DNA of 64,000 nt, from positions 288,001-352,000 of the forward strand of contig CM000151.3 in the NCBI GenBank assembly GCA_000004695.1, read 5' to 3'. Both the position numbers and the translations under genes were made by a program. This document shows positions 17,425 through 46,484 of this stretch, piece after piece; within the stretch, counting starts at the first letter, position 1; each line of letters starts with the position of its first letter. The stretch is from Dictyostelium discoideum. Its lineage: Eukaryota. The notes beneath the pieces are model-generated. The model was not told where the DNA came from, ran no database searches, and worked only from the letters and a program-made list of their open reading frames with translations.

Positions 17425-17550
17425 AAATGACTACATAACCCCTGTAAGCGGTTAGTATCCCCTTGTAATCCTTACAACCAGTGTAGCCCACAAATCCGGC
17501 CATTCGTCTTACAGGCCTATTAGCCGCTTACAGGGGTTACGTAGTCATTT
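17425..17550. repeat. GC-rich (about 55% GC) 126-bp palindromic element: 27-bp inverted repeats around a 71-bp core with three CTTACAGG motifs
   Basis: AAATGACTACATAACCCCTGTAAGCGG ... CCGCTTACAGGGGTTACGTAGTCATTTT. A second copy in inverse orientation lies at 54262-54400 with 5 substitutions, none compensatory. It stands out sharply in AT-rich surroundings. Confidence 0.55.
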
Positions 17551-18086
17551 TGCTCGTTGGGGGTGTAATTAATATTTATTTATATTTTTATTATGGGCTA
17601 ATTCTTTTTTTATTATTTAATGATAATTTTATATTAAAATATGATATATTATTAATTAATATTAATTTGTTAAAAATTTTATTATATTATAATCTCTTTA
17701 TAAAAAGTGAGAAATTATGTGTCATAAAATATCTAATAAAATAATGAATTTTCTAAAATTTTTTTTTCCAGCGAATAATAAAAAAAAAAAAACTGTTTTT
17801 GTTAACAATGGGGTGAAGATGATTTATTGTAATTTTTTAATAATTTTAGTTCTGTTTTTTTTTTAATGGAGATATGAGAGAGATTATTATGATATTTTGA
17901 ATGATTGGATCATAGTAATAAAACAATATTTTTAATTTTTTTCTTTTTTTTTTTTCTTTTCATTCTTTTTTTTTTTCTTTTCATTCTTTTTTTTTAGTAC
18001 TTAATCTTTTTTTTTTTCATCTTTCAAAATAAAAAAAAAATATTTATATAAATTTTAACTTTAAATTAAAATAAATAAATTTTAGA

Positions 18087-19698: not shown

Positions 19699-20155
19699 TT
19701 CGAAATGTTTAAACAATCATACAGTTTAAAATTAAATAAATTGTTTTAAACCACCACTTTTTTTGAACACATGAAAATAAATAAGATATAAAAATAATAA
19801 GATAAAAAAAGATTTTTTTTTTTTTTTTTTTTTATTTTATAATTATTCTTGTCGTCAGTATTGTTACTATAATTAATCCCATGAGTTTTTTTTATTATTA
19901 TTTTTAATTCTTTTATATTTGAGATGATTATTATTAATTAAATGACTTTGAGTTTTTTTTTTTATTTTTCTATGCCCAAAATTACCATATTAATTTCAGC
20001 AGCCATATTAATTTCAGCCTAAAATAGTTGGTCTGTGCATGCCAAAATTAATATGGCTGCTGAAATTAATATGGTAATTCTAGCAGACATAAGTCCCATG
20101 CCAAAATTACCATATTAATTTCAGCAGCCATATTAATTTTGGCATGGGACACACA
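19690..20155 (+). repeat. Terminus of the palindromic-end MITE family, capping the 15.4-20.2 kb duplicated block
   Basis: Matches the 3955-4420 subterminal and terminal sequence, including the double palindrome ...CCATATTAATTTCAGCAGCCATATTAATTTCAGC...GTCCCATGCCAAAATTACCATATTAATTTCAGCAGCCATATTAATTTTGGCATGGGAC. Preceded by (AAT)n at 19621-19690. Confidence 0.55.
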
Positions 20156-21489: not shown

Positions 21490-23472
21490 ATGTCAACAAA
21501 AAAAAAAATTAAAACAGATAATAATAATAAAATATTTCAAGATTTTATTGATTTTGAAATTTTAAGATCTTTAATCAATTATTTATTAATCAACAAAACA
21601 AATAATAATAATAATAATAATAATAAATATAAAATTAGTAAATTTTATTTACATAGAAATGAAATATTGAATTATATATTAGTTTCAAAAAAGTGGTATA
21701 ATTTTATATCATTAACAATATCAAATAATATTATTAATAATAAATCATTTGAACATTGGTTAAAAATTAATAATAATAATAATAATAAATCATTTACTAA
21801 AAATTATAATAATCAAAATCGATATGATAAAAATAATTTAATTTTTAATAACAAATATAGTAAAAATAAAATTGGTTTTAATAAAGAATTTTCAATTATA
21901 AAAATCAAAGAATCAATAATCAAAGATTATTTTAAATTCAATTTATTTTTAAGTAATATTACAATTGATGATTTTAAAGAAATTAAAAATAAATTTGAAA
22001 ATAATCAATTAGTTTATAATAGAATTGTTGTTGATATTAAAACTGGCTATTATGGTGAAGGGAATCAAGATGAAATTTTATTTAAAATACATGAATATGT
22101 ATCAAATGAAAATTCAGAAATCATATCAAATTTATTTAAAATATTAGAATTAAATCATGATTTTATGATAATCGATGACTTTCATCCAAAATCTAAAGAA
22201 GAGGATGAAGAGGATGAGGAGGATGATGAAAATGATAAAGGTAGTAAGAAATGTACTGAAATATATTTAAATAATTTATTGGTTTCCGGTTATGATCTAA
22301 CTATGGATGAGGATGAAGATAGAGAATCATTAAAGATATTCAAAATATTTAAAAGTAAAAATATATTTTATGATGGGTCTGGTATTGCTAGTGATATTCC
22401 AACACATGTCAATTATTCAGCATTGTTTGATCCTGATAATTCAGGTCAACAAGTTGAATCGATTAAAGTAAAAAATGAACTTGAAGATCCTGATTTTGTA
22501 GAACCACTCCATTTAATCAAAGTTAATCAATTTAAAAATTTACATTCAATTACAATACCAATTAATTCATTTCAAATATTATCAAACTTATCCGAAGAAA
22601 TGGGATATTTTAGTATCGATTGTTTTAAATCTGGTTTTGGTCTTTCAGATAATATGAAATCAGAATTAAATCAAATGATCAATTCATTCATTACAAGTAA
22701 ATCTTTAAAAAATTTAAAAATAACATCTATTAGTACAAAAGAAGATCCAATTGATTATGATGCTTATTATGATGAAGGTGATCTTCAAACTTTTATGAAT
22801 CAAATAAATGAACCTAAAGAATCATTTTCAAATTGTTTCAAACCATTATTTTCAGAATTAAATACATCAATTGAAAGAATTGAATTTGATTGTTGCGGTT
22901 TATTAAATATCAATACATTTTCAAATTTATTAAATAATAAATCAATTAAATATTTATATTTATATGATAGTGATTTCTTTTTTTCTTCATTAAAAACAAG
23001 TGATGGTGGTAGTGATGATTGTGGTATTGATGATGATGGTGGTAGTGATGATTGTGGTATTGATGATGATGGTGGTAGTGATGATTGTGATGCATATCAA
23101 AAAATTATTTCCATTAATCAATATCTATTTGAAAATATATTTTCATCACCATTAACATCAATTAGACATTACAGAATTAAATTCAAAGAATTAGATGAAT
23201 TAAAATTCATATTTAATTTAATATTAAATAATATTTTTAAATTACAATTATATTCATTAATATTTGAATTCAATGAAAACGAATTAGTTTATGAATTTGT
23301 TAAAGAATTTAAAAATTTAATAAATAATATTTCAATACAAGAACAACAACAACAACAACAAAAATCAAACAACATAAATTTAAAAGAAATTAAAATTATA
23401 ATAAATGATGACTGTTTAGAAGAATTAAATAATCCATATTTCAAAACAACAATAAAGAATAGCCCATATTAA
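21490..23472 (+). CDS. Paralog-array family member 5 (660 aa, intact); contains an internal 3x (DDCGIDDDGGSD) tandem expansion
   Basis: Intact ORF with the family motifs. A 39-nt unit is repeated three times at 22990-23100 inside the variable region that precedes the conserved ISINQYLF motif. Confidence 0.75.
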   Translation: MSTKKKIKTDNNNKIFQDFIDFEILRSLINYLLINKTNNNNNNNNKYKISKFYLHRNEILNYILVSKKWYNFISLTISNNIINNKSFEHWLKINNNNNNKSFTKNYNNQNRYDKNNLIFNNKYSKNKIGFNKEFSIIKIKESIIKDYFKFNLFLSNITIDDFKEIKNKFENNQLVYNRIVVDIKTGYYGEGNQDEILFKIHEYVSNENSEIISNLFKILELNHDFMIIDDFHPKSKEEDEEDEEDDENDKGSKKCTEIYLNNLLVSGYDLTMDEDEDRESLKIFKIFKSKNIFYDGSGIASDIPTHVNYSALFDPDNSGQQVESIKVKNELEDPDFVEPLHLIKVNQFKNLHSITIPINSFQILSNLSEEMGYFSIDCFKSGFGLSDNMKSELNQMINSFITSKSLKNLKITSISTKEDPIDYDAYYDEGDLQTFMNQINEPKESFSNCFKPLFSELNTSIERIEFDCCGLLNINTFSNLLNNKSIKYLYLYDSDFFFSSLKTSDGGSDDCGIDDDGGSDDCGIDDDGGSDDCDAYQKIISINQYLFENIFSSPLTSIRHYRIKFKELDELKFIFNLILNNIFKLQLYSLIFEFNENELVYEFVKEFKNLINNISIQEQQQQQQKSNNINLKEIKIIINDDCLEELNNPYFKTTIKNSPY

Positions 23473-23625: not shown

Positions 23626-23895
23626 TTTTTTTTTTTTATATAAATAAATAATTTACCTTTTGATTTGGAAATATAATTTATTTTATTTTGTTTGTTGTAG
23701 GGAATTTTCCATAAAATTTCACTACAGTAGCGTAGTGAATTTTATTATTTAATTTCACTACAGTAGCGTAGTGAAAAAAAAAAATCACTGACCTTAAATT
23801 TTTTTTTTTTTCAAAAAACAAATAAAGTTTATTAAATTGAAATTTTATTTTTTGTTTTAATTATTATTTTATTTATTTTTATTATAATTATTGTT

Positions 23896-23935
<40 letters not shown>

Positions 23936-24076
23936 CAATTTTTTTTTTTTAAATTTTTTTCAATTTTTATTTGTTTATTAAATTGTAATTTTATTTTTTG
24001 TTTTAATTATTATTTTATTTATTATTATTGTTAATTTTTTTTTTTTTTCAATTTTTTTTTTTTTAATTTATTTTTA

Positions 24077-24385
24077 TTAATTTATTTTTATTAACTCCCT
24101 GAGTTGTTCAATTGCTTGATTTACCATATCACTGTAAACACTGCACACAATTGAATTTTTTCTAGCTTTGTTACCTCTGGTGCATTTGATGTTTTTGCAT
24201 TTTCCTTTGTATACAAAAAAGTCCAAATATAATTCGTTTTCTATTACAGTTTTTACACAATGTTGGTGAAATTGTTTTGATTTTAATTCTAATGCTTCTA
24301 ACATCATATTTGGATTTTTAACGATTAAAGCATCACCACTATTTACATATAGTACTTTGGCTGCTTTTTCGAGGAATTTAGTCAA
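24077..24385 (-). CDS. Hypothetical ORF (102 aa) inside the Tdd-4-like element
   Basis: Open frame LEKAAKVLYVNSGDALIVKNPNMMLEALELKSKQFHQHCVKTVIENELYLDFFVYKGKCKNIKCTRGNKARK.... A possible short upstream exon at 24386-24480. No recognisable domain. Confidence 0.3.
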   Translation of the reverse strand: MTKFLEKAAKVLYVNSGDALIVKNPNMMLEALELKSKQFHQHCVKTVIENELYLDFFVYKGKCKNIKCTRGNKARKNSIVCSVYSDMVNQAIEQLRELIKIN

Positions 24386-24842
24386 ATTTTCCTCTGAATC
24401 TAACTATTCTTCATTGCCATATTCAATGGCTAAATTTCTTAAGAGTTTTATCGAATCTATTAATTCTTCGATCATTCTTTTTTTTTGAAATTTTTTTTTA
24501 TTTTGTTTTTTCAATTTTTTTTTTTTATTTTGTTTTTTCAATTTTTTTTAAGTTTTATTTTTTTTTATTTTTTTTTATTTTTTTTAACAAATGTAATTTT
24601 TTTTTATTTTTTTCAATTTTTTTTTTTTTTTAATTTTTAATTTTTTTTTTTTTTTTTAATTTTTTGTGTTGATTTGTGTTTTTTTTGTTTTTTTGATTTG
24701 GCCACTTGTTTTTATTTTCTAATTTCCCCATACCCCCTTCTATTAATTGCAACCAAATCAAGTTCTAATTTTTGTGTCCTTGTTAACTTTGTTTTTGCAA
24801 CTTTTTTTGAAGGTATCACATTAACGATTTTTCCTATTGATG

Positions 24843-25042
24843 GTGATTTGGAAGGTGATTTAAATGGTGATTTAAAAGGTGAATTGGAAGGTGATTTAAA
24901 TGGTGAATTGGAAGGTGAAATGGATGGTGATTTGGAAGGTGATTTAAATGGTGATTTGGAAGGTGATTTTAATGGTGATTTAAATGGTGAATTGGAAGGT
25001 GAAATGGATGGTGATTTGAGAGGTGATTTGGATGGTTTAGAA
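24843..25042. repeat. 15-bp tandem repeat (GGTGATTTRRAWGGT, about 13 units); possible subterminal transposase-binding repeats
   Basis: Direct tandem units in the DNA. Translates in the + frame to GDLEGDLNGDLKGELEG..., but more likely non-coding. Its reverse complement carries the AAATCACC motif that is also tandemly repeated inside the R elements. Confidence 0.5.
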
Positions 25043-26121
25043 TGTGATTTTAAAGGAGGTTTATTAACAATTGGTAGGACGGGAGGACGGCCTCTGAACA
25101 GTTGTTACTATACCACTATACCATTACCAGATTGTGGTATAGTATACGATGGTATTATTTGCACTTGAGGTAACTATTTCTTTTAATCTTTTAAATTCAT
25201 ATCCTTTCTCAAACAATTCATTAAATTTGGCGCTGTTAGATTATTATTTAAAAATGGGAGTATTTCTTCTTGTTCCATTTCATTATTGAGTTTGTGTTGA
25301 AATGGATTATCGTTAATGATAGGTGGAATATTTGATGGATTGTTAATAGCATCTTCCAAAACCCTAAATGGATCATTTTGTGTTACCAATTGATGCAAGT
25401 TGAAATTGGATAAATCCTTACCAAGATTTTTAATAAACTGAACCAAAAATTCAATAACTTTCCCATCATTATTTAAATAAAGACCAGAAGTAAAAGAATC
25501 AATATCTTTTTGTATGTTTGGCGATGTTCTAAAAATATCAACTGTTGATTGTTTATAAAGAACCAACTTGTTACCTCCTACAAAACCAGAGTATAAACCT
25601 TTTTTTTGAAGGCTATTGATTCCATCTTCCAAAAATTCAAGTTTATAAAGTTGTTTAGTGTCTTCCTGTATTACCTTATGAATTTTACACAAAATCAATA
25701 TTTTCTATTAGAATTAAATATAAAATTTGTTAATTATTACTGTTTCATATATTATTAATCTTTATGTTTTAATTACTTACATTATTTTTTTTAATTTCTA
25801 GAAAGAGTACAGTATCACCAACTTTCAATCCCTTTGGTGGTTTTGAATTCCATTGATTTTGGTAACTTGTGAGATTTTCAAGAATAATAGCTGTTCTTTC
25901 TTCTTTTGAAACATCTGAAACACCAATTGATTGAGAGTCTTGTTCTGATTGAACATTAATAAACAAAGGAACAATACCAACAGCTTGAGATGGTGTCATT
26001 TTAATTGTTCTTGTTTTTGTATTATTGTAATCATACAAAGCTTGTTTTAATAGTTCAGAAAGAGACCTAGAAGTACCATCAAGAAAACTAAAATTTATTT
26101 ATAAATGATTAATTAATAAAC

Positions 26122-26873
26122 ATCACAGCAAAGAAAAAACCACCTTTAAATTCGCTTTAAATTAAATTTAAATTTGCTTTAAAGTCCTGAATTAAAGCAA
26201 TTTTAAAGGTAATTTTTAAGGTTACTTTAAAATCACCTTAAAAATTACCTTTAAAATTACCTTTAAAATTACCTTTTTAATGGCTTTAAAAGCGAGGTCC
26301 TGAGTTCGAATCCGTTATTTAACGGATAAATTTTTTAAAATTTTTTTTTTAATTTTTCAAAAATTACCCAAAAGGGATTCGATCCCCCGACCCTCTATCA
26401 AAGGGTAGTCTCATCAACCATTACACCATTTGATTGCTTTGATGAAAAATTTAAAAATGATAGAATATTTTATCCCCATTTTTTTGTGCTAAAATTAGAT
26501 CTTTTTTATTAAAAATCTTAAATTTATGTTTAAAGGAAATTTAAATTCACTTTAAATCTACTTTTAATCTACTTTAAATCCTATTTAAAATTAATTTAAA
26601 ATAAATTTTAAAGGTATTTTTAAATATCTTAAAAATTATCTTAAAAATTACCTTAAAAATCACCTTTAAAATCACCTTTAAAATCACCTTTAAAATTGCT
26701 TAAAAATTTATTTTAAAGCAAATTTTAAAGGCATTTTTAAATATCTTAAAAATTACCTTAAAAATTACCTTAAAAATGAATTTTTTAAACGCGGCTTTAA
26801 ATTCAATTTAAATCCAATTTAAATCAACTTTTCTTTAAATTTGCTTTAAAGGTGCATTTTTCTTTGCTGTGAT
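26122..26873. mobile_element. R element copy 1 (about 750 bp, MITE-like) inserted in the transposase gene
   Basis: 12-bp terminal inverted repeat ATCACAGCAAAG / CTTTGCTGTGAT. Internal tandem AAATCACCTTT and AAATTACCTTT repeats. Internal tRNA-like segment with A-box and B-box. Flanked on both sides by AT. A second copy at 27678..28458 is more than 98% identical in the same orientation. An R-like fragment also lies inside a MITE at 35100-35200. Confidence 0.6.
26374..26437 (-). ncRNA. tRNA-like module inside R element (A-box TGGTGTAATGG, anticodon-arm-like ACCCT/TTGATAG/AGGGT, B-box GGATCGAATCC); lacks an acceptor stem, so a tRNA-derived / SINE-like promoter module
   Basis: The minus strand reads GCAATCAAATGGTGTAATGGTTGATGAGACTACCCTTTGATAGAGGGTCGGGGGATCGAATCCC. 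The T-arm and anticodon arm fold, but the 3' acceptor strand does not pair with the 5' end. An identical module lies in R2 at 27959..28022. Confidence 0.4.
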
Positions 26874-27677
26874 ATCGATAATTTATATTGTTCACAATAT
26901 CATACTCTTGTTGTTTTAATTTTGAGATCCTCTCCTTGATAGTTCGATTCAATCTTTCTACCATACCTTGAGTTGTTGGTGTACGAGGAGCTCCATGTGC
27001 TGACTTGGAGCCTGGAAAAAGTTTTAGGAATTCTTTTTGGACTTTGTTTTTAAATTCACGTCCATTATCGCAGTGCCATACTTTCACAGGTTTGCCAAAG
27101 TACGTGAGAGCCAAAAAATTGTATATGGGAACTGTTCTCTTTGTTGTCAAACATCTAAAAAATAAATGATAATTAAAATAAAAAAAGAAAACTAATAAAT
27201 TAATAAATAAAAAATAAATACCTTCCAGTAGCAAATTTTGTAAAAGAATCTATGCATAGAATAATGTAAACAACATCGGTGTCGTACGGTTGTACAGAGT
27301 CATATTGGATAAGATCATCTAGTTTAGTTAGTATCTTTTCATTATCATCATCGTATGTAACTTTTTCTTTATGTTCACCTTTAATTGATGTTAAATCATA
27401 AACCAATCTTGAGTATTCCTCGGTATCTACAATTGGAGCAAAATCCTTTGTTATACCTATTAATTTATTTAAATTATTAAAAGAGTTTTAATATAAAAGT
27501 TACAAAACATCATATAAAAATGATTGATACCAAACCTTTTATTCTATTTCGTTGGCAAATGTCACACGTATCTACTGCATCAGATACAAAAGAATACAAT
27601 CCCATATTATAATATTTAGTCTTGTAGTTCCCATAGGTTGCATCTCTTCCTATATGACCTTTATGCATTTCTTCCCA

Positions 27678-28458
27678 GAGTGATACCATCACAGCGAAGA
27701 AAAAACCACCTTTAAATTCGCTTTAAATTAAATTTAAATTTGCTTTAAAGTCCTGAATTAAAGCAATTTTAAAGGTAATTTTAAAGGTAATTTTTAAGGT
27801 TACTTTAAAATCACCTTATTTAATATTTATTTATAGGCTTATCATTTAAGCTGAAGGGTTATTTTAATGGCTTTAAAAGCGAGGTCCTGAGTTCGAAGCC
27901 GTTATTTAACGGATAAATTTTTTAAAATTTTTTTTTAATTTTTCAAAAATTACCAAAAGGGATTCGATCCCCCGACCCTCTATCAAAGGGTAGTCTCATC
28001 AACCATTACACCATTTGATTGCTTTGATGAAAAATTTAAAAATGATAGAATATTTTATCCCCATTTTTTTGTTCTAAAATTAGATCTTTTTTATTAAAAA
28101 CCTTAAATTTATGTTTAAAGGAAATTTAAATTCACTTTAAATCTACTTTAAATCTACTTTAAATCCTATTTAAAATTAATTTAAAATAAATTTTAAAGGT
28201 ATTTTTAAATATCTTAAAAATTATCTTAAAAATTACCTTAAAAATCACCTTTAAAATCACCTTTAAAATCACCTTTAAAATTGCTTAAAAATTTATTTTA
28301 AAGCAAATTTTAAAGGCATTTTTAAATATCTTAAAAATTACCTTAAAAATTACCTTAAAAATGAATTTTTTAAACGCGGCTTTAAATTCAATTTAAATCC
28401 AATTTAAATCAACTTTTCTTTAAATTTGCTTTAAAGGTGCATTTTTCTTTGCTGTGAT
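27678..28458. mobile_element. R element copy 2 (MITE-like) inserted in an exon of the transposase gene
   Basis: Same TIRs and internal structure as 26122..26873. Removing it plus one flanking AT dinucleotide joins ...EVCLEVINDYR to MVSLWEEMHKGHIGRD... in frame. Confidence 0.6.
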
Positions 28459-28743
28459 TCTATAATCATTAATTACTTCTAAACACACTTCTTTTGATAT
28501 ATTTCTATCTCCGCCACAATTCATGACTTTTTTTTCAATTCTAAATAATTTTTCTTTTCTGTTTCTGTTTTTTATTGGTCAGAATTTAAAAAATGATTGT
28601 GTTATTGTAAGGAAAAATATTTACTCATCATGTAAAAATTTATAATTTTTATGTTTAGTATTTTCAAAATTATTATCTTCAATAAATTTTAAATAATTTA
28701 TAATTTCATTTATTTTATCTTGTTTCATTTTGGGAAAATGAAA

Positions 28744-28778
<35 letters not shown>

Positions 28779-29313
28779 TGTTGGGGAAAAAAAAAAAAAG
28801 TTTTGGCGCAAAAAAAAAAAAAAAAATTAAATAAAAAAAAAAAAAAATTAAATAAAAAAAAAAAAAAATAAAAAAACTTATATAGAACTAATAATCAAAT
28901 AAAAGATAATAATTTAATAAACTTTATTTGTTTTTTGAAAAAAAAAAAATTTAGGGTCAGTGATTTTTTTTTTTCACTACGCTACTGTAGTGAAATTAAA
29001 TAATAAAATTCACTACGCTACTGTAGTGAAATTTTATTGAAAATTCCCTACAACATTGTTCGATGAAAATGAGAAGATTTTTTTTATCCCAGTTGTAGTG
29101 AAAAAATTAAATAATATTTTTAAATTACAATTATATTCATTAAAATTTGAAAAAAAATAATAAAAAAAAAAAAAAATTTTTGGCTTTTAAGATTTATGGA
29201 GAATTATCCATCAAAAAAAAAAAAAAAAAAAAAAGGTTAAAAAAAAAAAAAAGGTTAAAAAAAAAAAAAAAATTAAACTTTTTTTTAAAAACTTATTCTT
29301 AAAACAAATAAAA

Positions 29314-31125
29314 ATGTTAACAAATAAAAAAATTAAAACAGATAATAGTAATAAAATATTTTCAAATACTAATGATAATGAAATTTTAAGATCTTTAATC
29401 GATTATTTATTAATCAGCAAAAACAATAAAACAAATAATAATAATAATGCAAATCAATATAAAATTAAAAAAATTTTAATAAATAGAAATGAAATATTCA
29501 ATTATATATTAGTTTCAAAAAAGTGGTATAATTTTATATCATTAACAATATCAAATAATATTATTGATAATAAATCATTTGAACATTGGTTAGAAATTAA
29601 TTATACAAAAAAATCATATACTAAAAATAATAATAATCAAATTCAATATGATAAAAAGAAAATTAATTTTAATAAAAAGTTTTCAATTATAAAAATCCAA
29701 GAATCAATAATCAATGATTATTTTAAATTCAATTTATTTTTAGATAATTTTACAATTAATTATTTTAAAGAAATTAAAGATAAATATGAAAATAATCAAT
29801 TAGATTATAAAAGAATAGTTGTTAATCTTAAAACTAATTCTGGTGGTAATAAAAAAATTTTATTAAATATAAATGAATATGTATCAAATGAAAATTCAGA
29901 AATCATACCAAATCTATTTAAAATATTAGAATTAAATTCTGATTTTAAGTTGGACAAGTGCTATATTCCAATATCTGAAGGTACTGAAATATATTTAAAT
30001 AATTTATCGATTTCTGGTTATGAGGGTATAACATCGAAGATATTCCAAATTTTCAAAAGTAAAAAGATAATTTATGATGGGTCTTGTTGTCCAACAAATG
30101 TCAATTATTCAAAGATATTTGATCCAGATAATTCAGGCCAACAAGTTGAATCGATTAAAGTTAAAAATGAAAGTGGTAATAAACAGTTTGTTGAACCACA
30201 TCATTTAATTAAAGTTTACCAATTTGAAAATTTACATTCAATCACAATACCAATGGATTCATTTCAAATATTATCAGGCTTTTCTGAAAAAATGGGATTC
30301 AATAAATTTGATATGAATAATAAATATCCAGGTAATTCGAAAAATATGGAATCAGAATTAAATCAAATGATCAATTCATTCATTACAAGTGAATCTTTAA
30401 AGAATTTAAAAATATCATCAGTATGTTCACAATACGTTATTTTTAAAATGAATATTGATAAAATAAATCAAATTAAAGAATCAATTTCAAAATCATTTAA
30501 ACCATTATTTTCAGAATTAAATACATCAATTGAAAGAATTGAATTAGATTGTGGTGGTATATTAAATATCAATACATTTTCAAATTTATTAAATAATAAA
30601 TCAATTAAATATTTATATTTATATGATAGTGATTTTATTGTTTATTCATTTAAACAAACTGGTGGTGGAAGTTATTGTAGTATTAATCAATTTCTATTTG
30701 AAAATATATTTTCATCACCACAAACATCAATTAAACATTATGGATTTTGCTTCAAAAAATCAAATGAACTCGAATTAATATTTAATTTAATATTAAATAA
30801 TATTTTTAAATTACAACTATATTCATTAATATTTGTATTAAATAAAAACGAATTAATTGAGAAATTTGTTAAAGAATATGGAAAATTTATAAAAAAAATT
30901 TCAACACTAATACAAAAACCACAACAAGAACAACAAGAAAAACAAGAACAAGAACAACAACCACAGGAAATACAAAATTTAAATTTAAAAGAAATTAAAA
31001 TTAAAATTAAAATTAAAATAAAATTATTTTAAAATTAAATATAATCAATATTTTCAAGAATTAAAAAATTTAAAAAATCCATATTTCACAACAGTAATAG
31101 AGAAAACGGTTAATATTAATGGTTA
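29314..31125 (+). pseudogene. Paralog-array family member 6 (572-aa ORF 29314..31032 plus a frameshifted C-terminus); lacks the acidic variable insert
   Basis: Family motifs are present. After the stop at 31032 the NPYFTTVIEK C-terminal motif continues in another frame (31040-31125). Could be a real frameshift or a homopolymer sequencing error. Confidence 0.55.
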
Positions 31126-31764
31126 AAAAAATATAAAAATTATAACACTCAATCAAATACTAAAACAAAAAACTTTTCAATTAAAAATCAAAACAATCTT
31201 GATGCTGAATCAATTTTTAAACCAATTAAACATAAAATTCATTCAACAGGTAAACCAACTACCCATGCCGTACCATCAACCACAACTGCTCCATCAACTA
31301 CTGGTGCTGAATCATCAGCCCCTACTGGTTCATCAACTACTCTTGCTGTATTACCATCACCACTACTGTACCATCAACCACAACTGCTCCATCAACTACT
31401 GTTTCACAAACTACTCATGCTGTATTACCATCACCACTACTGGTTCATCAACCACCCATGCTACACCATCCACCACTAGTGACTAACCAACTACTCGTGC
31501 TGCACCATAATATATATAATAATAAATAAATAAATAAATAAATAAATAAAAAGAATAAATAAATAAAAAAAAGATAAAAATTAAAATTGAATACCATCTT
31601 TCAATATTTTTTTTTTTATTGGTATCATTCGTTTTAATATGGTATCATTCGTTTTATTGGTGTAAGACTAGAGAAATTATTAGGTGTAGTTGGTGAAAAT
31701 TCAACATTCCCAATTGAAAGTATGGCAATATCAAGAAATAATCATTATTTAGGTAGTATTTCTC

Positions 31765-32151
31765 ATGATTTTAGTTAAAAGTTGGAATATTGCTTGTTTC
31801 TATGAAGAGGATGAAAGTGAAGATGCTGATTCTGCAAATGCAAATGCAATTGAAATTGAAAATGATGATGATGATGATAGTGGTAGTGAAATGGGTGATG
31901 ATGACCATGATGATGATCATCATCATGGCGAAGAACAAGACAAAGAAGAAGAGGAATCTTCACCCGATGAAGATATTAAACTTAAAAAACCTCAACAAAA
32001 TCCAATTAAAGCTCAACAAATTGAAAAACAAAAACAAAAACAAAATCAAAAAGAAGTTTCTTTAAAAATAAAAAAAAATAAAAAAAATGAAAAAAAAAAA
32101 AAAAAAAAAAAGAAAGGAGTGGAGTTAATCAATTACATGTTCATATGTTAA
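31765..32151 (+). CDS. Hypothetical acidic/His-rich then Lys-rich low-complexity ORF (128 aa)
   Basis: An ORF without family similarity: EEDESEDADSANANAIEIENDDDDDSGSEMGDDDHDDDHHHGEEQDKEEEESSPDED..KKNKKNEKKKKKKKK. The composition is protein-like, but low complexity makes coding status uncertain. Confidence 0.25.
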   Translation: MILVKSWNIACFYEEDESEDADSANANAIEIENDDDDDSGSEMGDDDHDDDHHHGEEQDKEEEESSPDEDIKLKKPQQNPIKAQQIEKQKQKQNQKEVSLKIKKNKKNEKKKKKKKKGVELINYMFIC

Positions 32152-33639
32152 TCACAACATTTGTTTTTTTTTTTTTATTTTATTTTATTAAATTTAAAAT
32201 AAAAATAAAATAATCAAAAAAGAACTTTACATTTTAACATCAAAAAAGTTAAAATAGAATATAAGTAAGGGGTTAAATAAAAAAGGAAAAAAAAAAAAAA
32301 GATCACTTTTATCCCATTTTTGGTATTTTAAAAAATTATTTCAGATATGGTAATTTTTATTACTTTTAATTTTTTTTTTATTATTTTTTATTTTTTTTTT
32401 GGGAAATCGGATTTAATTAAAATGGAAATTTTCCTTTTTTAATTAATAGAAATTGAAATAATATTTAGTATAAATAGTAAAAAAAAAAAAAATTAAAAAA
32501 TCATTTTTAACAAAGAAATAACAAATAAAAAATAAATATAACTTTAAGCAAATACATATAGTTTTTCCAATGTAATCTTTTTTAAATTAAAAAAAAAAAA
32601 AAAAAATTTAATAAATCTAACATATCAATCTAATCAATATTAAAAGTTTAATACTATTAAAAAGTTTAGATATAGGTTTTTTATGGTTGCTTAATTGTAA
32701 CAAAAAAAAAAAATAAAAATAAAAAAAAAAAAAAAAAAAAAGAATTTTTTTATAAATTTAAATGGTAAATAATAATAACTATAATAATAATTATAATAAT
32801 AATAATAAAAATAATATTATTAATTAAAAAAAAAAGTAGTAATAAACTAATGGTAATTTTTTAATGGTTGCGAAAACCCTTTTTAAAATATTAAACTAAG
32901 AAACATTTAAATAACTATTAAAGTAAAAAAAGTTTAGATTGAAGTTTTATTACTGGATTTCTAAAAGAAAAATTAAAAAAAAGGGAGTTTCTTTAATAAA
33001 AATGTAGATGATTATGTAAGCGATACCTCTCCGATGATAATATATCGTTGAGATACCACCCTCAAATGATAAGACCGTTGAGATCTCTCAAATGATAAGA
33101 TATCGTTGTTTGGTTCACCATATGATATTACAGATTAAAGTAAATCAAAGGGCGGGGCCATTGTTTGGGTTGGTAATATAAAATGAATCAATTCTGATCA
33201 AATTTTAGAGAACTAAAATTTTGAAAGTATTTGACCATATATTTAAAAATATTACCACAATGCAAGCAATTTTAGAAATCCAGATAAAACTTCAAAAAAA
33301 ATCTTACTGGAAACCAATTACACCCGTTTTGCTAGGCTAAAAATGAATGGTTTGGAAAACTCATCAGGGGAAAAAAGAAATTAATAAATTTAATTATAAA
33401 ATAATAAAATTACGCAATTTATAATTTTTTTATTGATTTTATCAGATATTTCTTATTTTTTAATAGTTTTTGTCATATTTTTTTTACATAAACATACACC
33501 AACTCATATACACATAAAAAGATGAATATAGAATAACAATAATACAATAAATAAAATAAAATAAAATAAAATAATATAATATAATATAATATAATATGTG
33601 TAATAGTAATAATAATAATAATAATTTTTTAAGCCCAAT

Positions 33640-34716
33640 CCATTGGTATTACAGAAAACTTTATTTGAGAAATCTATAATATTTTCACTCTTTAAAATGT
33701 TACCTGTATCATCTAAACCATACTCTTTCAAAAAGTTATCAATTGGAATTTGTTTTGAAAATTTCTCAACATTCCAATCACATTGCCCTTTAATTGTAAA
33801 TCCAAATCCTTTTACAACATCATCTAAATCTAAACCTTCTTCACCCTTAATTTTACCTCTAGTTTTCTTCCAATAAACATATTCTGTAAATCCAACAGGT
33901 CCTGCAAAAACATTACCAAAATAAATAAAATCTCTCTAAAAAATAAATTAAAATTAGTAAAAAAAAACCAAAAAAAACAAAATAAATTATTATTTTTTAC
34001 TTACTGGTTTACCAAGTACAGGTATAATTGGTGTTAATAAATCAGCCAATTTATCAATATTTGCCATTTTAACAGCAGATCTATTAATAAAGATTGAACC
34101 TTTAATTGATTCATAAGGATTTGATTTGTTTCTTGCAACATAGAATCTCTTTGAATCTAAAGTATCCAATGCATTTTTATGTTGATCTAATTCCCCTAAT
34201 AACTCTTCTGAACAATGACCTCTTATTGGTTTATCTGTTATTGAACCTTACCAACAAATTTAACAAGGGTATGATCAACTGAAAATCCTTCCCATGGATT
34301 ATAACATTCACTATTACAATTTATCCATTCAAATATTTGTTTTGATGGAAAACCAAGATCCTCATCCTCTAATATATGTTCAGTTTGTCTATAAAATTCT
34401 GGTAAATCTTTCTCTGCAAATGCAAGTCCTTTTGTACTTTGAAATCTATCAACTTTAATTAAATCATTTCTACCATCTTGTTCTTTACCTAATCCTTGAC
34501 CTTCAATATGCCCATGTTTTGCCTTTTTTTAAAAAAAAAATAAATAAATAAATATTAAATTATTTTAATTTTTTTTTGATAAGTGATACATACCAAAAAA
34601 TTTGCACCAAAACTTAATTTAGGTGTATCTTCTTCTTCTTTATCATCATCTTCTTCATATACGAAACTATCTTCGAAATCTTGATCATCGTTTTCACTTC
34701 TATTTGATGATAACAT
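33640..34716 (-). pseudogene. CMTR1-like (cap-specific mRNA 2'-O-methyltransferase; G-patch + FtsJ/RrmJ) gene fragment: three exons, one internal frameshift, 3'-truncated
   Basis: Exon 1 34594..34716 MLSSNRSENDD...KLSFGANFL. Intron 34523..34593. Exon 2 from 34522: AKHGHIEGQGLGKEQDG (G-patch) ... a frame break near 34240-34250 ... ELLGELDQHKNALDTLDSKRFYVARNKSNPYESIKGSIFINRSAVKMANIDKL (FtsJ K motif). Intron 33936..34004. Exon 3 from 33935: RDFIYFGNVFAGPVGFTEYVYWKK (AGPGGF-type SAM motif) ...GFGFTIKGQCDW.... The coding stops being recognisable at about 33640, before the FtsJ D-K-E residues. Confidence 0.55.
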
Positions 34717-34790
34717 TCAAATTGGACACCCAACAATGGGTGATAGATTTTAAAAAAGAATAAAATTAATTTGGTTGAATTAATTGTTAA

Positions 34791-34823: not shown

Positions 34824-34904
34824 TAAAAAATGTGAATTTGAATGTTTGAATTAATAAATTAAAATGAAAAAAAAAAAAAAAAAAAAAAATATTGATAAAA
34901 ACAT

Positions 34905-35322
34905 TCAAATTGGACACCCAAAAAAATTTTCATTTTATTTTTCATTTTTTTTTTTTTTTTTTTTACAAACAATAATTTAAATTTATTAATTCTTAATATG
35001 AATTAAGTATAGATAAATAGAGCACTCAAAAATACACAAAATGATATAAAAATTAAAAAAAATGAATGTAATCATTCTGTTTTTTGAATTTTTTATTTTA
35101 CTTTTTAAATCAAAATAAATTTTAAAGGCATTTTTAAATATCTTAAAAATATCTTAAAAATCACCTTTAAAATTATTTACCATTCATTCGTTTTTATCAA
35201 TAAAAAATAAAATTAGAAAAAAAAAAGAAAATTGTGATTTTTTTTTTTTTTTTATTTTTTTATTTTTTTTTTTTATTTTATTTTTTTTTTTTTTTTGGTT
35301 GTCCAATTTGAATGCTGTTATC
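34905..35322. mobile_element. Small MITE (about 420 bp) with 22-bp TIRs CATTCAAATTGGACACCCAAAAA; the interior carries an R-like AAATCACC repeat fragment
   Basis: ACATTCAAATTGGACACCCAAAAAA at 34905 and its reverse complement TTTTTGGTTGTCCAATTTGAATG at 35297-35322. A solo TIR copy at 34706-34730 overlaps the CMTR1-like ATG. A related copy lies at 43276-43520. Confidence 0.5.
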
Positions 35323-35359
35323 AACCAAAAAAAAAATATAACAACTTAAACAAAAAATA

Positions 35360-37456
35360 ATGTCAAAAAATAAAAAAACTAAAACAGATAATAAAATATT
35401 TCAAGATGTTATTGATTTTGAAATTTTAAGACCTATAATCAATTATTTATTAATCAGCAAAAATAAAAATAATAATAATAATAATAATAATAATACTAAT
35501 AGTAATCAATATAAAATTAATAAATTTTATTTAAATAGAAATGAAATATTAAATTATATATTAGTTTCAAAAAAGTGGTATAATTTTATATCATTAACAA
35601 TATCAAATAATATAATTAATAATAAATCATTTGAAAATTGGTTAGAAATTAATAATAATAATAATAATAATAATAAATCATTTATTGAAAATTATAATAA
35701 TCAAAATCAATATGATAAAAATAATTTAATTTTTAATATTAAAAATGAAAAACCAAATTATTATAATCAAAAACGAAATAATACAGTTTTTAATAACAAA
35801 GAAGATAAACAAAATAAAATTAGTTTTAATAAAGAGTTTTCAATTATAAAAATCAAAGAATCAATAATCGATGATTATTTTAAATTCAATTTATTTTTAG
35901 ATGATATTACAATTGATGATTTTAAAGAAATTAAAAATAAATTTGAAAATAACCAATTACTATATAATAGAATTGTAGTTAATCTTAAAACTAGTGGTAA
36001 TAATACTTTATTTGAAATAAATGAATATGTATCAAATGAAAATTCAGAAATCGTATCAAATTTATTTAAAATATTAGAATTAAATTTTGATTTTTGGTTG
36101 GAGGATGGTTATAGTGCAAAATATGAAGAGTTGGAGGAGGAGGATGATCATGGTGGTAAGAAATGTACTGAATTATTTTTAATAAATAATTTATCAATTT
36201 CTGGTTTTAATATTAGTATAGGTAATGATGAAACATTAAAGATATTCAAAAATTTCAAAAGTAAACATATAATATATGATGGGTCAGATGATGTTGATAA
36301 TTATCAAGCGCATGCCAATTATTCAGTATTATTCGATCCAGATAATTCAGGTCAACAAGTTGAATCAATTAAAGTACAAAGTAAACATGGTAATAAAGAG
36401 TCTGTTGAACCACTCCATTTGATCAACGTTAATCAATTTGAAAATTTACATTCAATTACAATACCAATAAATTCAATTCTATTATTATCAGAGATATCTA
36501 AAGAAATGGGCTTTTATGGATTCTATGATGGAAATGCATATTCAAGTTTTACTGGAGATGTCAAATCAGAATTAATCGAAATGGTCTTTTCAATCGCTAC
36601 AAGTGAATCTTTAAAGAATTTAAATATAACATCAATCAATTTTGAACAATATCCAATTAATTTCCAAGATTACGCTCACTATTATTTATCTCTTCCTGGT
36701 GGTGGTGGTCTTGAATTTTTTGCAAACAAAATAAATGAAATTATAGAACAATTTTCAAATTCATTTCAACCATTATTTTCAGAATTAAATACATCAATTG
36801 AAAGAATTGAATTTGATTGTTGTGGTTTATTAAATATCAATACATTTTCAAATTTATTAAATAATAAATCAATTAAATATTTATATTTATATAATAGTGA
36901 TTTCATTGTTTATTCATTAAAACAAAATGATAGTGGTAGTGGTAGTATGAAGCAAATGCATAAAGAACCTATTTCAATTAATCAATATTTATTTGAAAAT
37001 ATATTTTCATCACCATTAACATCAATTAGACATTATAAAATTAATTTCAAAGAATCAAAACAAATCAAACCAGTATTTAATTTAATATTAAATAATATTT
37101 TTAAATTACAATTATATTCATTAATATTTGTATTAAATAAAAGTAAATTAATTGGTGAATTTGTTAAAGAATTTAAAAATTTAATAAATAATATTTCAAT
37201 ACAACTACAACATCAACAAGAACAACAACAACAACAAGAACAACAAAAACAAAAATTAAATAATATAAATTTAAAAGAATTTAAAATTAAAATTGAAATT
37301 GAAAATAAAATTAAAATTAAAATCAAAGATAAAAATGAAATTAAAATTAATGAAAGGTATATTCAAGAATTAAATAATATTGATAATCCATATTTCACAA
37401 CAGTAATAAAGAAGATAGTTAGAAATGAAACCCCAAAAAAAAATTATCGAAAATAA
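35360..37456 (+). CDS. Paralog-array family member 7 (698 aa, intact; the longest, with extra N-rich insert and KIKIEIENKIKIKIK tail repeat)
   Basis: Intact ORF with the family motifs (LFDPDNSGQQVESIKV, NPYFTTVIKK). Confidence 0.75.
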   Translation: MSKNKKTKTDNKIFQDVIDFEILRPIINYLLISKNKNNNNNNNNNTNSNQYKINKFYLNRNEILNYILVSKKWYNFISLTISNNIINNKSFENWLEINNNNNNNNKSFIENYNNQNQYDKNNLIFNIKNEKPNYYNQKRNNTVFNNKEDKQNKISFNKEFSIIKIKESIIDDYFKFNLFLDDITIDDFKEIKNKFENNQLLYNRIVVNLKTSGNNTLFEINEYVSNENSEIVSNLFKILELNFDFWLEDGYSAKYEELEEEDDHGGKKCTELFLINNLSISGFNISIGNDETLKIFKNFKSKHIIYDGSDDVDNYQAHANYSVLFDPDNSGQQVESIKVQSKHGNKESVEPLHLINVNQFENLHSITIPINSILLLSEISKEMGFYGFYDGNAYSSFTGDVKSELIEMVFSIATSESLKNLNITSINFEQYPINFQDYAHYYLSLPGGGGLEFFANKINEIIEQFSNSFQPLFSELNTSIERIEFDCCGLLNINTFSNLLNNKSIKYLYLYNSDFIVYSLKQNDSGSGSMKQMHKEPISINQYLFENIFSSPLTSIRHYKINFKESKQIKPVFNLILNNIFKLQLYSLIFVLNKSKLIGEFVKEFKNLINNISIQLQHQQEQQQQQEQQKQKLNNINLKEFKIKIEIENKIKIKIKDKNEIKINERYIQELNNIDNPYFTTVIKKIVRNETPKKNYRK

Positions 37457-42047: not shown

Positions 42048-42459
42048 TGTAAAAATTTTGAAATGATTTAAAAAAAATAAATTTTGGTGTTAAGATTCAA
42101 AAAAAAAAAAATAAAAAAAAAATAAAAAAAAATAAAATAAAATAAAAAAAATAAAAATTAAAAAAAGAAAATCTTATTATTATTATAGCAATGAATTAAA
42201 AATTTTTTATTTATTTATTTATTTGTTTATTTGTTGTTTATGTAATCCGAAGTGATTTGAGGTTGTGATGGTGATTGTGTTGTTGGATATGTTTGTTGTT
42301 GTTGTTCTTGTGGTGATTTTTGAGTTTGTTCTACTGGTTATTGTGTTTGTATTTGGTGAATATTGTTGATGTATTATTAAAAGATTGAAAATCTTGATTT
42401 TTCCAATCACTGATGCTGAATTAACACTACCAAATCTAATACAATGTCGTTGTATTTGA

Positions 42460-42923
42460 TTTTTGAAAATTTGCTAAAATATTTCACCACTAGTTGTGGC
42501 ACTATCGGTATCAACACCCCTCTGCTATGTCGTCAGGGAAAAGGAATTGAACTTTTAATGGTACCTTTTTACCAAGTGCTTCGATCTCTGTATCTACACA
42601 GGTGTTAATGAATGTGGACCCAATTGAGTGAGTGCATCCAACCTATAGAGACAATACTAGCGAAACCATCATCATCATCTCTACTTTATTTAAAAGAGTG
42701 TAAATAGTTTGAAACATACTTTGAAAGTCTTGATATCGGGTGCAAATGAACCACAACACCACAACAAAGTGATAACAATTCCCAACCTCTAAAGCTTTAT
42801 TCTCTCTCTCTTTTACCTGGATGACCTGTCAATTGTTTAATGATTTGACAATAGATTTCATCACGTAACTCTGGATGATTTAAACATTGACGAACATAAA
42901 TGTACAAATTTGATTATGTGGTT

Positions 42924-42966
<43 letters not shown>

Positions 42967-43080
42967 CCCATATATTATAAATTTGCAACAATTGATGCAT
43001 TTAAATTATTATTATTATTTATATTATCATTATTTGATGAAAATACTTTATTAACGACAACTGGTGATGTTGAAGGAAAA
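42460..43080 (-). pseudogene. MyTH4-domain (unconventional myosin tail) gene fragment embedded in a 0.6-kb duplicated repeat
   Basis: The minus strand encodes ...[27 protein letters not shown] followed, after a 1-frame shift, by [34 protein letters not shown], the characteristic MyTH4 core. A second, further-deleted copy of the same repeat lies at 49320..49860. Upstream parts 42220-42460 and 48650-48830 also match. Confidence 0.5.
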
Positions 43081-45148
43081 TAAATAAATGATGGGTTACA
43101 AAAAATTTTCAGTGTGAGATTTGAAAAAAAAAAATTAAAAAAAAAAAAATAAAAAAAATAAAAAAAAAATAAAAAAAATAAAAAAAAAAGGATATATAAA
43201 AATCAAATCTAACCATTTGTTAGATTTGATTTTTATATATCCTAAAAAGGATTTAGTAGATAAATTGTAAAAACATTCAAGATGGACAACCAAAAAAAAA
43301 AAAAAAAAAATTTTCTTTTAACGGGCGAATATATTTTATAAAAAATAATGTTTATATTGATGAACATTCAAATTAGACCCAAAAAAAAAAAAAAAAAAAA
43401 AAAAAAAATCGATAACAATTTAAATTTATTAATTTTTAATATGAATTTAGTATAGATAAATAAAGCACCCAAAAATACACAAAATGATATAAAATATATC
43501 AAAAACGAATTTAATTATTATTATTATTTTTAATTTTTTTTTTTTTTTTTTTTTTTTGGGTTCAATCGAGAAAAAAAAAATTAACTTGGCTGAAATAATT
43601 GTTTTATTTTTATTTTTTAATAATGAATTTAATCTTGATCAGTGTAAATATTTTTATTTTTTTAATTTTTTTATTTTTTTTTTTTTTTTTTTATTTTTTT
43701 TTTTTTTATTTTTTTTTGTTATCCCAGATTTTAATTTTTTATTTTTTATTCATCCCTTTTTTATTATATTTTAGTTATTTTATTTAACAACAAACACTGT
43801 TCTTTTTCTTTTATTTCTTTTAGTTTATCTTGGTCGAATTCAATGCCAAAACCATCATTATATGTTTCTTGAAGATCACCTAACATACAGAGTATTAAGA
43901 CGATTTTGTTTAAATGATCCAAATTTCCTCGGTATGTTGAAATTATTTTAAAATGATTAATTTTTTAAAAAAAAGTTTTCCACATACACACGGTTGGAGC
44001 TTACAAAATTAGGTAAAGATATATCTAGAAAAAAAAATAATAAAATAATAAAAAATAAAAAATACCAATAATATAATTATTTTAATAATAATAAAAAAAA
44101 AAAAAAATAAAAAAAATAAAAAAAATAATAATAAAATAAAATTAATAACAAAGTATTATAAGAAAGAGATTTGGTTATTTAAAATAATTACCCAATATTG
44201 GAAAGCTATCATGTTTACGAATAATTTGACCATTATTATAGTATTGTGGCTCTCTATTTTGGTCTTTTATAGTATATATTTGATCATGATCAGGAACCTG
44301 GGAATCCCTCAGGATGTAGTAAAATAATCTGTATGATCTAGTGCATACCTTACAATGAAATTTGACCACATGACTTTGCTTTTACCAGAATAGTATTTTT
44401 TTTTGGATTTGGTAATCAGTGGGAGTTTAAATATCAATAGGAGCAAGGAGCACAATTGGCAGAAGGATTTGATTTTCTTGGTGTTGGCATTTGTTTTCTT
44501 TTTTTTGGAATATGCATTTGCCGAGTATCAAGTATCATATTTTATTACCCACAAGAGAGCAAATAAGCGTTTTATTTGGGTCTGATGTGGCCAATAAATG
44601 GTCAATCAAAAATAATTGTTTACCTTTAAAAACAACATTGTTTCCTTTTTTACACTGTTCAGCAATTGCAAGTGAAAAAGCTAATATAAAACCCAATATA
44701 GATGCTTTTGGAAATATTGATGTGTTGATCCAACCAAAGGAAATAAAAAAAGTTGATGAAGAAGAATGGATCGAGAATTAATTAATTGGAAAAAAAAAAT
44801 CAAAAAAAATCAAATCAAATCAAATCAAATCAAATCAAATCAAATAAAATCCAATCCAATAAAATAAAATAAAATAAAATAGAATCGAATTAAATTAAAC
44901 AAAATCAAAAAAAAAAAAAAAAAAAAAAAAATTAATTAATTAATTAAATAAATAAATAAAATTGGATAATGCAAATTAATCTTTATTTTGTTTTTAAATT
45001 ATTATTTATTATTATTGTTTTTTATTATTTATTATTTTTTGAAATATTGCGATTTCTCGCAACTCTATTGTTTTTATCAATTTAATAATAATAAAAAAAA
45101 AAAAAAAAAAAAAAAAATTTTCATTTACAATTTTTACAAAAAATAATA

Positions 45149-46140
45149 ATGTCAACAAATAAAAAAGTTAAAACAGATAATAATAATAAAATATTTCAAG
45201 ATTTAATTGATTTTGAAATTTTAAGATATTTAATCGATTATTTATTAATCAGCAAGAAAAATAAAAATAAAAATAAAAATAATAATCAATATGAAATTAA
45301 TAGATTTTATTTTAATAGAAATGAAATATTAAATTATATATTAGTTTCAAAAAAGTGGTATAATTTTATATCATTAACAATATCAAATAATATTATTGAA
45401 AAAAAATCATTTGAACATTTGTTAGAAATTAAAAATAATAATAAAAAATCATTTATTAAAAATTATAATAATCAAAATCAATATGATAAAAATAATTTAA
45501 TTATCAAGGATCTATATTAGTTTTAATAAAGAGTTTTCAATTATAAAAATCAAAGAATCAATAATCGATGATTATTTAAAATTTAATTTATTTTTATATG
45601 GCATTACAGTTAATGATTTTAAAGAAATTAAAAAGAAATATATTTGATAATAATCAATTAGTTTATAATAGAATTGTATTTGATGTTTACTAATGATACA
45701 GATTATGATTATGGTGATTATAGTATTTTATTTAAAATACATAAATATGTATCAAATGAAAATTCAGAAATCATATCAAACTTATTTAAAATATTATAAT
45801 TAAATTTCGATCCTTTTTTAACCACTGGTTATAGCCCAAAATCTGAACATGATGAAAGTTATAAGAAATGTAGTGAAATATATTTTAATAAATTATCAAT
45901 TATGGGTTCTGATAGAGATATTAATATGGTAATTTTAGACTCCTGAAATTGATATGGATGCAAATTAAATTAATATGGCTGCTGAAATTAATATGGCTGC
46001 TTAAATTAAATTAATATGGATGCAAATTAATAAATAAATAAATAAAAAAAAAAAAAAAAAAAAATTTAATTTATAAAAAAATTTAGAATAATATTCATAA
46101 TCCATTTTTCAAAACAATAATAAAGAATAACAAATAATAA
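45149..46140 (+). pseudogene. Family member with frameshifts, a large internal deletion and an inserted palindromic-MITE fragment (45890-46030)
   Basis: ORF 45149..45520 has the family N-terminus, then breaks (..NNLIIKDLY*). The remaining frames carry KESIIDDY, NQLVYNRIV and SNENSEIISNLFKIL. A C-terminal NPFFKTIIKNNK stub lies at 46090-46140. Confidence 0.6.
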
Positions 46141-46338
46141 CTATCAGTAATAATATTAAAAAAAATAAAAAAAATAAAATAAAAGAAATAATAAAATAAA
46201 AAAGAGGTACAATTCAGGTTTCTGAATTTCTTTTTTTTCAATTTATTAATAAAAAGAATTCTTTTTAAAAAAATATTCAAACTAAATATCAACATTACAC
46301 TTTTCAAATAAATTTAGAAAATAGTATTAAAATAATAA

Positions 46339-46375
<37 letters not shown>

Positions 46376-46484
46376 ACTTTCTAAAAAAAAAACCAACTAC
46401 CAATCAAAAGATTTTTTTTTTTTTTTTTTTTTTATTTTTTTTTTTTTTTTTAATTTGTCAGACTCTTAAAAATTTAAACAAATA

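Follow-up and report, generated by a model that had tools for sequence, protein, structure and literature searches.

The cap1 mRNA 2'-O-ribose methyltransferase of human cells, CMTR1 (FTSJD2/hMTr1; PDB 4N48, 8P4E), combines an N-terminal G-patch with a following RrmJ/FtsJ domain, and its active site is formed by K239/D364/K404 (PMC3941023). Animal CMTR1 proteins also carry guanylyltransferase-like and WW domains, in place of which the dictyostelid proteins have low-complexity tails. An intact Dictyostelium discoideum protein of 517 aa (P0002; assembly GCA_054859385.1, ACTFIR, locus L001) has the domain order of the human enzyme, aligns with it over residues 14-501 (E = 5e-86) and retains K197, D324, K364 and E401. 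Unlike human CMTR1, the copy in the D. discoideum window studied here (the whole stretch of 64,000 nucleotides that was analysed, with an A+T content of ~80% throughout) is frameshifted, retains the first Lys alone of the catalytic residues, carries a degraded SAM motif and breaks off five residues before the Asp.

The locus can be compared with three further kinds of element. As in unitary pseudogenes, an ancestral gene was disabled in situ by a frameshift and a structural deletion, with introns and synteny kept, near-neutral substitutions and intact alleles in relatives; protein databases yielded no functional paralogue (best 120 of 159 matches), and the intact carriers are 7-12% diverged, the AX4-like isolate 0.19%. 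Pack-MULEs and Pack-MITEs also present a gene fragment beside a transposon end, yet the fragment here occupies the native locus of the gene with introns retained, is not enclosed by the repeat pair, and no parent turned up for it in protein databases. The repeat at the start codon, finally, resembles Stowaway/Tc1-mariner-type MITEs: it is ~230-430 bp long, A+T-rich and non-coding, with terminal inverted repeats and dispersed copies, and one segment is insertion-polymorphic with TA on both flanks. Unlike in such MITEs, the inverted repeats are imperfect, the ends have A/T runs inside, there are two elements and isolated ends in ~107 kb, and TA flanks mean little in 80% A+T. 'MITE-like' is a fair label for the repeat; no autonomous partner was identified for it, and the titles listed in literature searches on MITEs included nothing relevant to it. 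The D. discoideum genome also has short non-coding palindromes, the thug-S repeats and mir-7131 hairpins, with three copies in the window; they have no sequence similarity to the start-codon motif.

Results

The gene at 34716-33627 on the minus strand (Table 1) is very probably the native D. discoideum CMTR1 orthologue DDB_G0271428, present as a pseudogene in the AX4-type lineage. A search with the window product matched three D. discoideum proteins and little else. Its exon 1 translation is identical to the N-termini of two of them, namely P0003, the strain AX4 protein DDB_G0271428 (8.48-Mb chromosome record), and P0001, the model from GCA_054883475.1 (locus-tag prefix ACTFIT). The exon make-up of both models corresponds exactly to the window exons, and the ACTFIT locus (L002) differs from window positions 44718-23287 by 40 mismatches in 21.4 kb (0.19%; 99.5% match). 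Hence, the window gene is the annotated AX4-type gene. Two window proteins had exact matches in ACTFIT only; exact look-ups of P0003, the 698-aa neighbour and a 318-aa ORF matched no record.

Two other assemblies carry an intact gene. Besides P0002, this is the 519-aa protein P0007 (GCA_054859355.1, ACTFIW, locus L003); both contain PF01585 (G-patch) and PF01728 (FtsJ), and both gene models could be rebuilt exactly, with four exons each. The window product shares 82-84% amino acid identity with these alleles and 48% with the Polysphondylium violaceum protein. To either side of the gene, L001 and L003 follow the order of the window with 86-93% of nucleotides identical, anchored by a B-box/FNIP gene, the 698-aa orphan-family neighbour and downstream family genes; Pfam assigned no family to six neighbouring ORFs. 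Introns 1 and 2 occupy identical positions in the window, L001 and L003. Furthermore, orthologues of 681-796 aa, the extra length being low-complexity tails, were found among the best 120 of 159 matches in P. violaceum, Tieghemostelium lacteum, Heterostelium album and Acytostelium subglobosum. Given the intact collinear alleles, the shared introns and the dictyostelid orthologues, the CMTR1 gene is old and vertically inherited in dictyostelids, and the window holds its native locus. The difference of L001 and L003 from the window, 7-12%, extends over the whole 20 kb (0.19% for ACTFIT), and the intact gene may be carried by an ancient haplotype or by a deeply diverged lineage that goes under the name D. 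discoideum.

These data bear directly on one of the two origins first suggested for the fragment, its capture by the mobile element (transduplication, Pack-MITE-like). A gene fragment beside a repeat end is what such a capture would leave, and the second repeat copy at 43.3-43.6 kb also adjoins a decayed MyTH4-like gene fragment. The fragment, however, occupies the place that synteny assigns to the intact gene, flanked on both sides by conserved, collinear neighbours, both introns are in place, and the inverted repeats do not enclose the coding sequence, which lies outside them; protein databases (best 120 of 159 matches) gave no parent copy elsewhere, and the window no other CMTR1 fragment. 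We therefore regard capture as extremely unlikely. A processed pseudogene is excluded, both introns being kept at the native locus.

Table 1. Positions of the CMTR1-type gene, its 3' replacement and the repeat copies in the window
Feature	Position	Strand	Remarks
Homology restart	31507-31620	-	94% to L001 11818-11934, just after the intact stop
2,006-bp haplotype-specific segment	31621-33626	.	stands in for ~0.7 kb of 3' coding sequence
Small two-exon acidic ORF inside the 2,006-bp segment	31765-32151	+	
Read-through of the open frame into AT-rich microsatellite	33504-33626	-	YYYYYYYY... tail of the AX4 model
Exon 3 remnant, degraded SAM motif	33627-33935	-	homology limit 33627 = P0002 residue 319
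Intron 2, GTAAGT..AG	33936-34004	-	position as in intact alleles
Exon 2, G-patch and FtsJ K motif	34005-34522	-	holds the 1-nt deletion
Intron 1, GTATGT..AG	34523-34593	-	position as in intact alleles
Exon 1, 41 codons	34594-34716	-	ATG 34716-34714
Repeat end TTGATGATAACATTCAAATTGGACACCCAACAA	34704-34736	+	on the minus strand gives the ATG and first codons (MLSS); motif also in L001, L003
Partial inverted copy AAACATTCAAATTCACATT	34830-34848	-	kept in L001, L003
311-bp segment	34890-35200	-	in the window and L002, missing from L001 and L003
Inverted repeat end TTGATAACAGCATTCAAATTGGACAACC, then poly-A	35297-35324 (19-mer 35297-35315)	-	ends 35 bp from the neighbour's ATG
698-aa divergent neighbour, orphan tandem gene family	35360-37456	+	orthologues flank intact CMTR1 in L001, L003
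Further motif copy	43264-43291 (19-mer 43273-43291)		
Second dispersed copy	43350-43600	-	motif 43355-43382 (19-mer 43364-43382)

The gene structure initially read from the window, three exons encoding the G-patch, the FtsJ K motif and the SAM motif, was confirmed with slightly corrected coordinates: the window copy does contain HIEGQGLGK, NRSAVKMANIDKL (K motif) and AGPVGFTEY. An in-frame TGA stands immediately 5' of the ATG, which is thus the first possible start. The one internal frame break that had been predicted also exists and consists in the loss of a single A at 34249-34248, where L003 reads GGTAAAGG and the window GGTAAGG; the frameshift leads to a stop at 34240-34238, after 135 codons. 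Five replacements (G75A, A190S, D222N, C224F and G228V) affect sites at which none of the eight other CMTR1s in the comparison varies. G75A concerns the last invariant Gly of the G-patch, A190S lies beside the catalytic Lys, and D222N, C224F and G228V fall in SAM motif I, which reads GNVFAGPVGF in the window and GDVCAGPGGF in the intact alleles. Pfam recognises the G-patch of the window product (PF01585, E = 5.7e-7, residues 35-74) and gives no PF01728 (FtsJ) match at E <= 0.1, because the N-terminal half of this domain alone survives.

At the 3' end, the last position homologous to the intact genes is 33627, five residues before D324, in agreement with the earlier claim that the gene runs out before the catalytic D-K-E, and homology restarts at 31620, just past the intact stop codon. 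The lost part corresponds to L001 11111 to ~11817 and comprises D324, K364, E401, intron 3 and the C-terminus, so that the window copy is left with a single catalytic residue, the first Lys (in NRSAVKMAN). The open frame beyond the homology limit has no homology to any CMTR1. Residues 320-517 of P0002 gave no tblastn match across the 64-kb window, which rules out a downstream exon or long intron completing the gene. The original prediction had named, as the case against it, a sole CMTR1-like locus that is complete; this locus is the only one detected in the window and in protein databases (best 120 of 159 matches), but it is incomplete.

The 2,006-bp segment that takes the place of the lost sequence occurs once in the window and is absent from L001 and L003, and we rejected it as a known repeat on these grounds. 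Rfam returned nothing at E <= 1 for its GC-richer part except one chance miRNA match, and an RNA gene within the segment was rejected on this result.

The independent assembly L002 has the frameshift, the altered motif I and the 3' breakpoint too, and the gene models of AX4 and ACTFIT each had to skip the frameshift by a different invented 'intron'. The lesions are therefore real and not read errors. An artefact of sequencing or assembly that conceals an intact gene might be suspected from the position of the frameshift in a short A run of a genome with 80% A+T, but it is scarcely credible in view of the agreement between the two assemblies and of the two independent gene models; moreover, the 2-kb replacement cannot be a homopolymer error.

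The substitution pattern was compared over the 313 codons common to the window, L001 and L003. The window differs from L001 with dS 0.075 and omega 0.69 and from L003 with dS 0.066 and omega 0.65, against dS 0.042 and omega 0.40 between L001 and L003. Codon changes unique to the window lineage (27 non-synonymous, 7 synonymous) look neutral when set beside the expectation of ~4.2:1 (sites 758:181). The two intact lineages pooled have 11 non-synonymous and 7 synonymous changes, a contrast with the window lineage that goes in the expected direction and is not significant alone (Fisher p = 0.20).

The replacements specific to the window lineage are equally dense on either side of the frameshift, with 14 in the 133 codons before and 11 in the 180 codons after it, which counts against a preserved G-patch-only protein. 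Such a truncated but functional product of 135 aa, for instance a cofactor of a DHX15/Prp43-type helicase, would be in keeping with the G-patch that Pfam still recognises, with the intact start codon and splice sites, and with the human CMTR1 G-patch, which is described as binding DHX15 (PMC6232587, PMC6071836). Besides the density of replacements, G75A at a glycine invariant in all other G-patches compared argues against it, and we consider it quite unlikely; some residual expression or function from the 135-aa G-patch-only ORF with its intact splice sites is possible.

The start codon lies within a repeat. The 19-mer ACATTCAAATTGGACACCC at 34713-34731 contains a CAT that is the complement of the start codon, and 4 occurrences with <=3 mismatches are present in the window, where chance predicts 0.02. 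The conserved unit is ~30 nt long, TTGAT(G/A)A(T/A)AACATTCAAATTGGACACCCAA followed by an A run on the inner side. The original prediction had placed the ATG in a solo terminal inverted repeat; the CAT of the 19-mer is indeed the start codon, but the repeat is not solo, as a direct copy (34901-34919) and an inverted one (35297-35315) are present. The prediction had also taken the motif for a terminal repeat, and the motif does terminate a dispersed element with inverted repeats at its ends. The elements ending at 34892 and 43355 have ~170 bp in common, with a ~105-bp core and the terminus ...GAATGTT..ATCAATAT, and the repeat is thus a genuine dispersed family; its inverted-repeat arms at 35297-35324 and 34892-34921 measure ~28 nt. 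The 311-bp segment is bounded by 11-bp perfect terminal inverted repeats TTGATAAAAAC and carries at its right end a full direct motif copy (34892-34924) with an identical 19-mer. It has TA on both flanks, likely by chance in 80% A+T, and its empty site in L001 and L003 is a T run. The motif is not part of a large transposon at 23.7-29.1 kb: the terminal repeats of that element are unrelated, and its similarity to the 311-bp segment is confined to 70 bp in its interior.

The intact alleles have the motif as well. Over the same ATG, L001 and L003 show TTGGG(TG)TCTAATTTGAATGTTATCA, with L003 reading TTGGGTGTCTAATTTGAATGTTATCATCAA, and a shortened version of the 35297-35324 arm is found in both beside the neighbour's ATG. 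Since the full motif runs across the CMTR1 ATG in L001 and L003, the junction of motif and ATG is older than the haplotype split and coexists with an intact gene, and the repeat would thus antedate the decay of the window copy.

This bears on the other origin suggested at the outset, that insertion of a MITE into the 5' end truncated or inactivated a working gene. The idea draws on the position of the ATG inside the motif that ends an inverted-repeat element and on the haplotype-specific 311-bp segment upstream. However, the alleles of 517 and 519 aa are intact with the same motif over the same ATG, so the repeat did not kill the gene. No N-terminal coding sequence is missing, MLSS... being shared; the disabling lesions are an internal frameshift and the 2.0-kb replacement at the 3' end, where the truncation lies; and the 311-bp segment is ~175 bp upstream of the ATG, clear of coding sequence. 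Inactivation by the MITE is thus very unlikely.

Discussion

We propose that an intact CMTR1 with G-patch and FtsJ/RrmJ domains, residing at its native locus, became a pseudogene in the AX4-type lineage. The 1-nt deletion halts translation from the ATG after 135 codons, replacements ruin the SAM-binding motif, and within a gene array prone to rearrangement ~0.7 kb of 3' coding sequence has given way to 2.0 kb of unrelated sequence, with the removal of three of the four catalytic residues (Asp, Lys and Glu). Given the stop after 135 codons, the ruined SAM motif and the lost catalytic residues, the window copy is most likely enzymatically inactive, and the initial view of the locus as a non-functional, truncated host gene of CMTR1 type was upheld. 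DDB_G0271428 is carried as a protein-coding 'cap-specific mRNA 2'-O-methyltransferase 1'; annotation as a pseudogene fits better.

This proposal treats the genes of L001 and L003 as alleles or orthologues of the window copy. They could instead be paralogues in a duplicated segment, in which case AX4-type genomes may hold, or may recently have held, a working copy. The tandem array does rearrange readily, as L003 has a second copy of the gene's 3' end (17369-17614), and a divergence of 7-12% is high for one species. Yet each assembly has one CMTR1-type protein among the best 120 of 159 matches (an intact one in ACTFIR and ACTFIW, a truncated one in AX4 and ACTFIT), the gene order around it is shared by all four, and in the three new assemblies the gene is found ~0.3-0.4 Mb from the start of the contig record. 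We consider paralogy unlikely and retain the reading of one locus with intact and disabled alleles.

A functional copy had been presumed to exist elsewhere in the genome. None was found: among the best 120 of 159 matches to the intact protein in protein databases there is no other CMTR1-type protein from AX4 or an AX4-like assembly, a search with the fragment returned DDB_G0271428 as the sole AX4 match, and no 3' half is present in the window. Any second protein of CMTR1 type would rank far above the lowest of these 120 matches, while a distant CMTR2-type enzyme may exist in AX4. The same 120 matches contain no CMTR1 from D. purpureum or Cavenderia fasciculata, which hints that CMTR1 may be dispensable in parts of the dictyostelid group.

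As an object, the locus is an ordinary pseudogene. Its wider meaning lies in the cap structure of D. discoideum mRNA, as the reference laboratory lineage may be without a canonical cap1 enzyme. Dottin, Weiner and Lodish (Cell 1976) reportedly found that most D. discoideum caps lack 2'-O-methylation, the penultimate nucleotides being mostly unmethylated. Slime mould mRNA is listed as cap 0 (PMC9825183). No paper linking Dictyostelium with CMTR1, DDB_G0271428 or 'cap 0' was found in our literature search. We put at about even the chance that the NC4/AX4 laboratory lineage naturally lacks a working canonical cap1 methyltransferase and so has cap 0 mRNA, while close relatives deposited as D. discoideum keep an intact CMTR1 under selective constraint, which takes its start codon, and probably its transcription start, from a repeat end. 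If there is no other cap1 enzyme, AX4 mRNA would be cap 0 and that of relatives with intact alleles cap 1. Were this true, the isolates would form a ready pair with and without the enzyme for the role of cap1 in a eukaryote lacking the interferon/IFIT system, and the role of cap1 outside animals would be testable in a natural system.

The repeat may also matter for expression of the intact gene. The MITE-like element with its inverted repeats fills the space between CMTR1 and the divergent neighbour, and one repeat end supplies the ATG, and probably the region of the transcript start, in intact alleles also. Transcription in D. discoideum is described as starting at a G that has up to 26 T-rich nucleotides before it (PMC6161686). 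When the five motif copies are read outward, three have G as their first base directly after a T run, and a fourth follows a T run of 7 nt. Since a T run followed by G fits the start-site pattern, the repeat ends may serve as start regions of the two divergent genes. In the intact alleles, whose start codon is formed by a repeat end, a gene has on a small scale co-opted the end of a mobile element for its own 5' end.

Rearrangement at the 3′ end of CMTR1

L003, the collinear locus of the ACTFIW assembly, has an intact CMTR1 gene and, 5.5 kb further downstream, a second copy of the final ~130 bp of CMTR1 coding sequence together with the 3′ flank (L003 positions 17369–17614). This duplication suggests that the 3′ end of CMTR1 is a recurrent rearrangement breakpoint. 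The 2-kb segment that replaces this end in the window contains a small ORF (see table), which is annotated in the AX4-like ACTFIT assembly as a 99-aa gene.

In a database search with the intact CMTR1 protein, homologues were found in four other dictyostelid genera, and none from Dictyostelium purpureum or Cavenderia fasciculata was among the matches listed (best 120 of 159). CMTR1 has possibly been lost repeatedly among dictyostelids.

A second decayed gene fragment at a repeat end

The repeat family that covers the CMTR1 start codon has a second copy in the window, and a MyTH4(-FERM)-like coding fragment lies immediately downstream of that copy. Since this fragment carries stops and frameshifts and is situated next to the copy, it is a second decayed gene fragment adjoining a repeat end. 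The entire 4.2-kb block around it is missing in both L003 and L001, the corresponding locus of the ACTFIR assembly.

Features of the window outside the CMTR1 gene
Feature	Position	Strand	Context
Two-exon ORF, protein very acidic with Lys-rich tail	31709-32151	+	within the 2-kb segment
MyTH4(-FERM)-like coding fragment	~42260-43100	minus	42130-46379
Perfect palindrome, 25-bp stem, AGGATATATAAAAATCAAATCTAAC..GTTAGATTTGATTTTTATATATCCT	43189-43243		directly after motif copy at 43273-43291
DNA transposon remnant, ~5.4 kb	23693-29055		terminal inverted repeats, internal direct repeats
tRNA-like stretch, ..GGTGTAATGGTTGATGAGACTACCC..GGGGGATCGAATCCC..	27900-28030	minus	inside the transposon's 780-bp internal repeat
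Tandem-array ORFs (examples)	473-2452, 6765-8618, 9663-11516, 11937-13916, 21490-23472, 29314-31032, 35360-37456, 46485-48395
Palindromic hairpins, three, near-identical	4311-4399, 20048-20136, 60037-60125	both	Rfam mir-7131

Surrounding genes and repeats

Most of the window is occupied by a tandem array of at least 10 paralogous ORFs of 570–700 aa, which share 70–85% nucleotide identity and whose order and copy number vary among the three haplotypes. A Pfam scan of three members revealed no domain.

The large transposon is bounded by terminal inverted repeats of 305–330 bp (82% identical) and contains a direct repeat of 780 bp in two copies (94%). In ACTFIT, the orthologous gene model gives a match to integrase (rve), and the element is missing from the corresponding site of L001. 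ARAGORN made no call for its tRNA-like stretch; the only tRNA called in the window is tRNA-Val(AAC) at 59021–59095.

The three hairpins score 94–99 bits against Rfam mir-7131 on both strands (gathering score 74). Multicopy miRNA loci of D. discoideum have been reported within thug-S repeats (PMC6161686).
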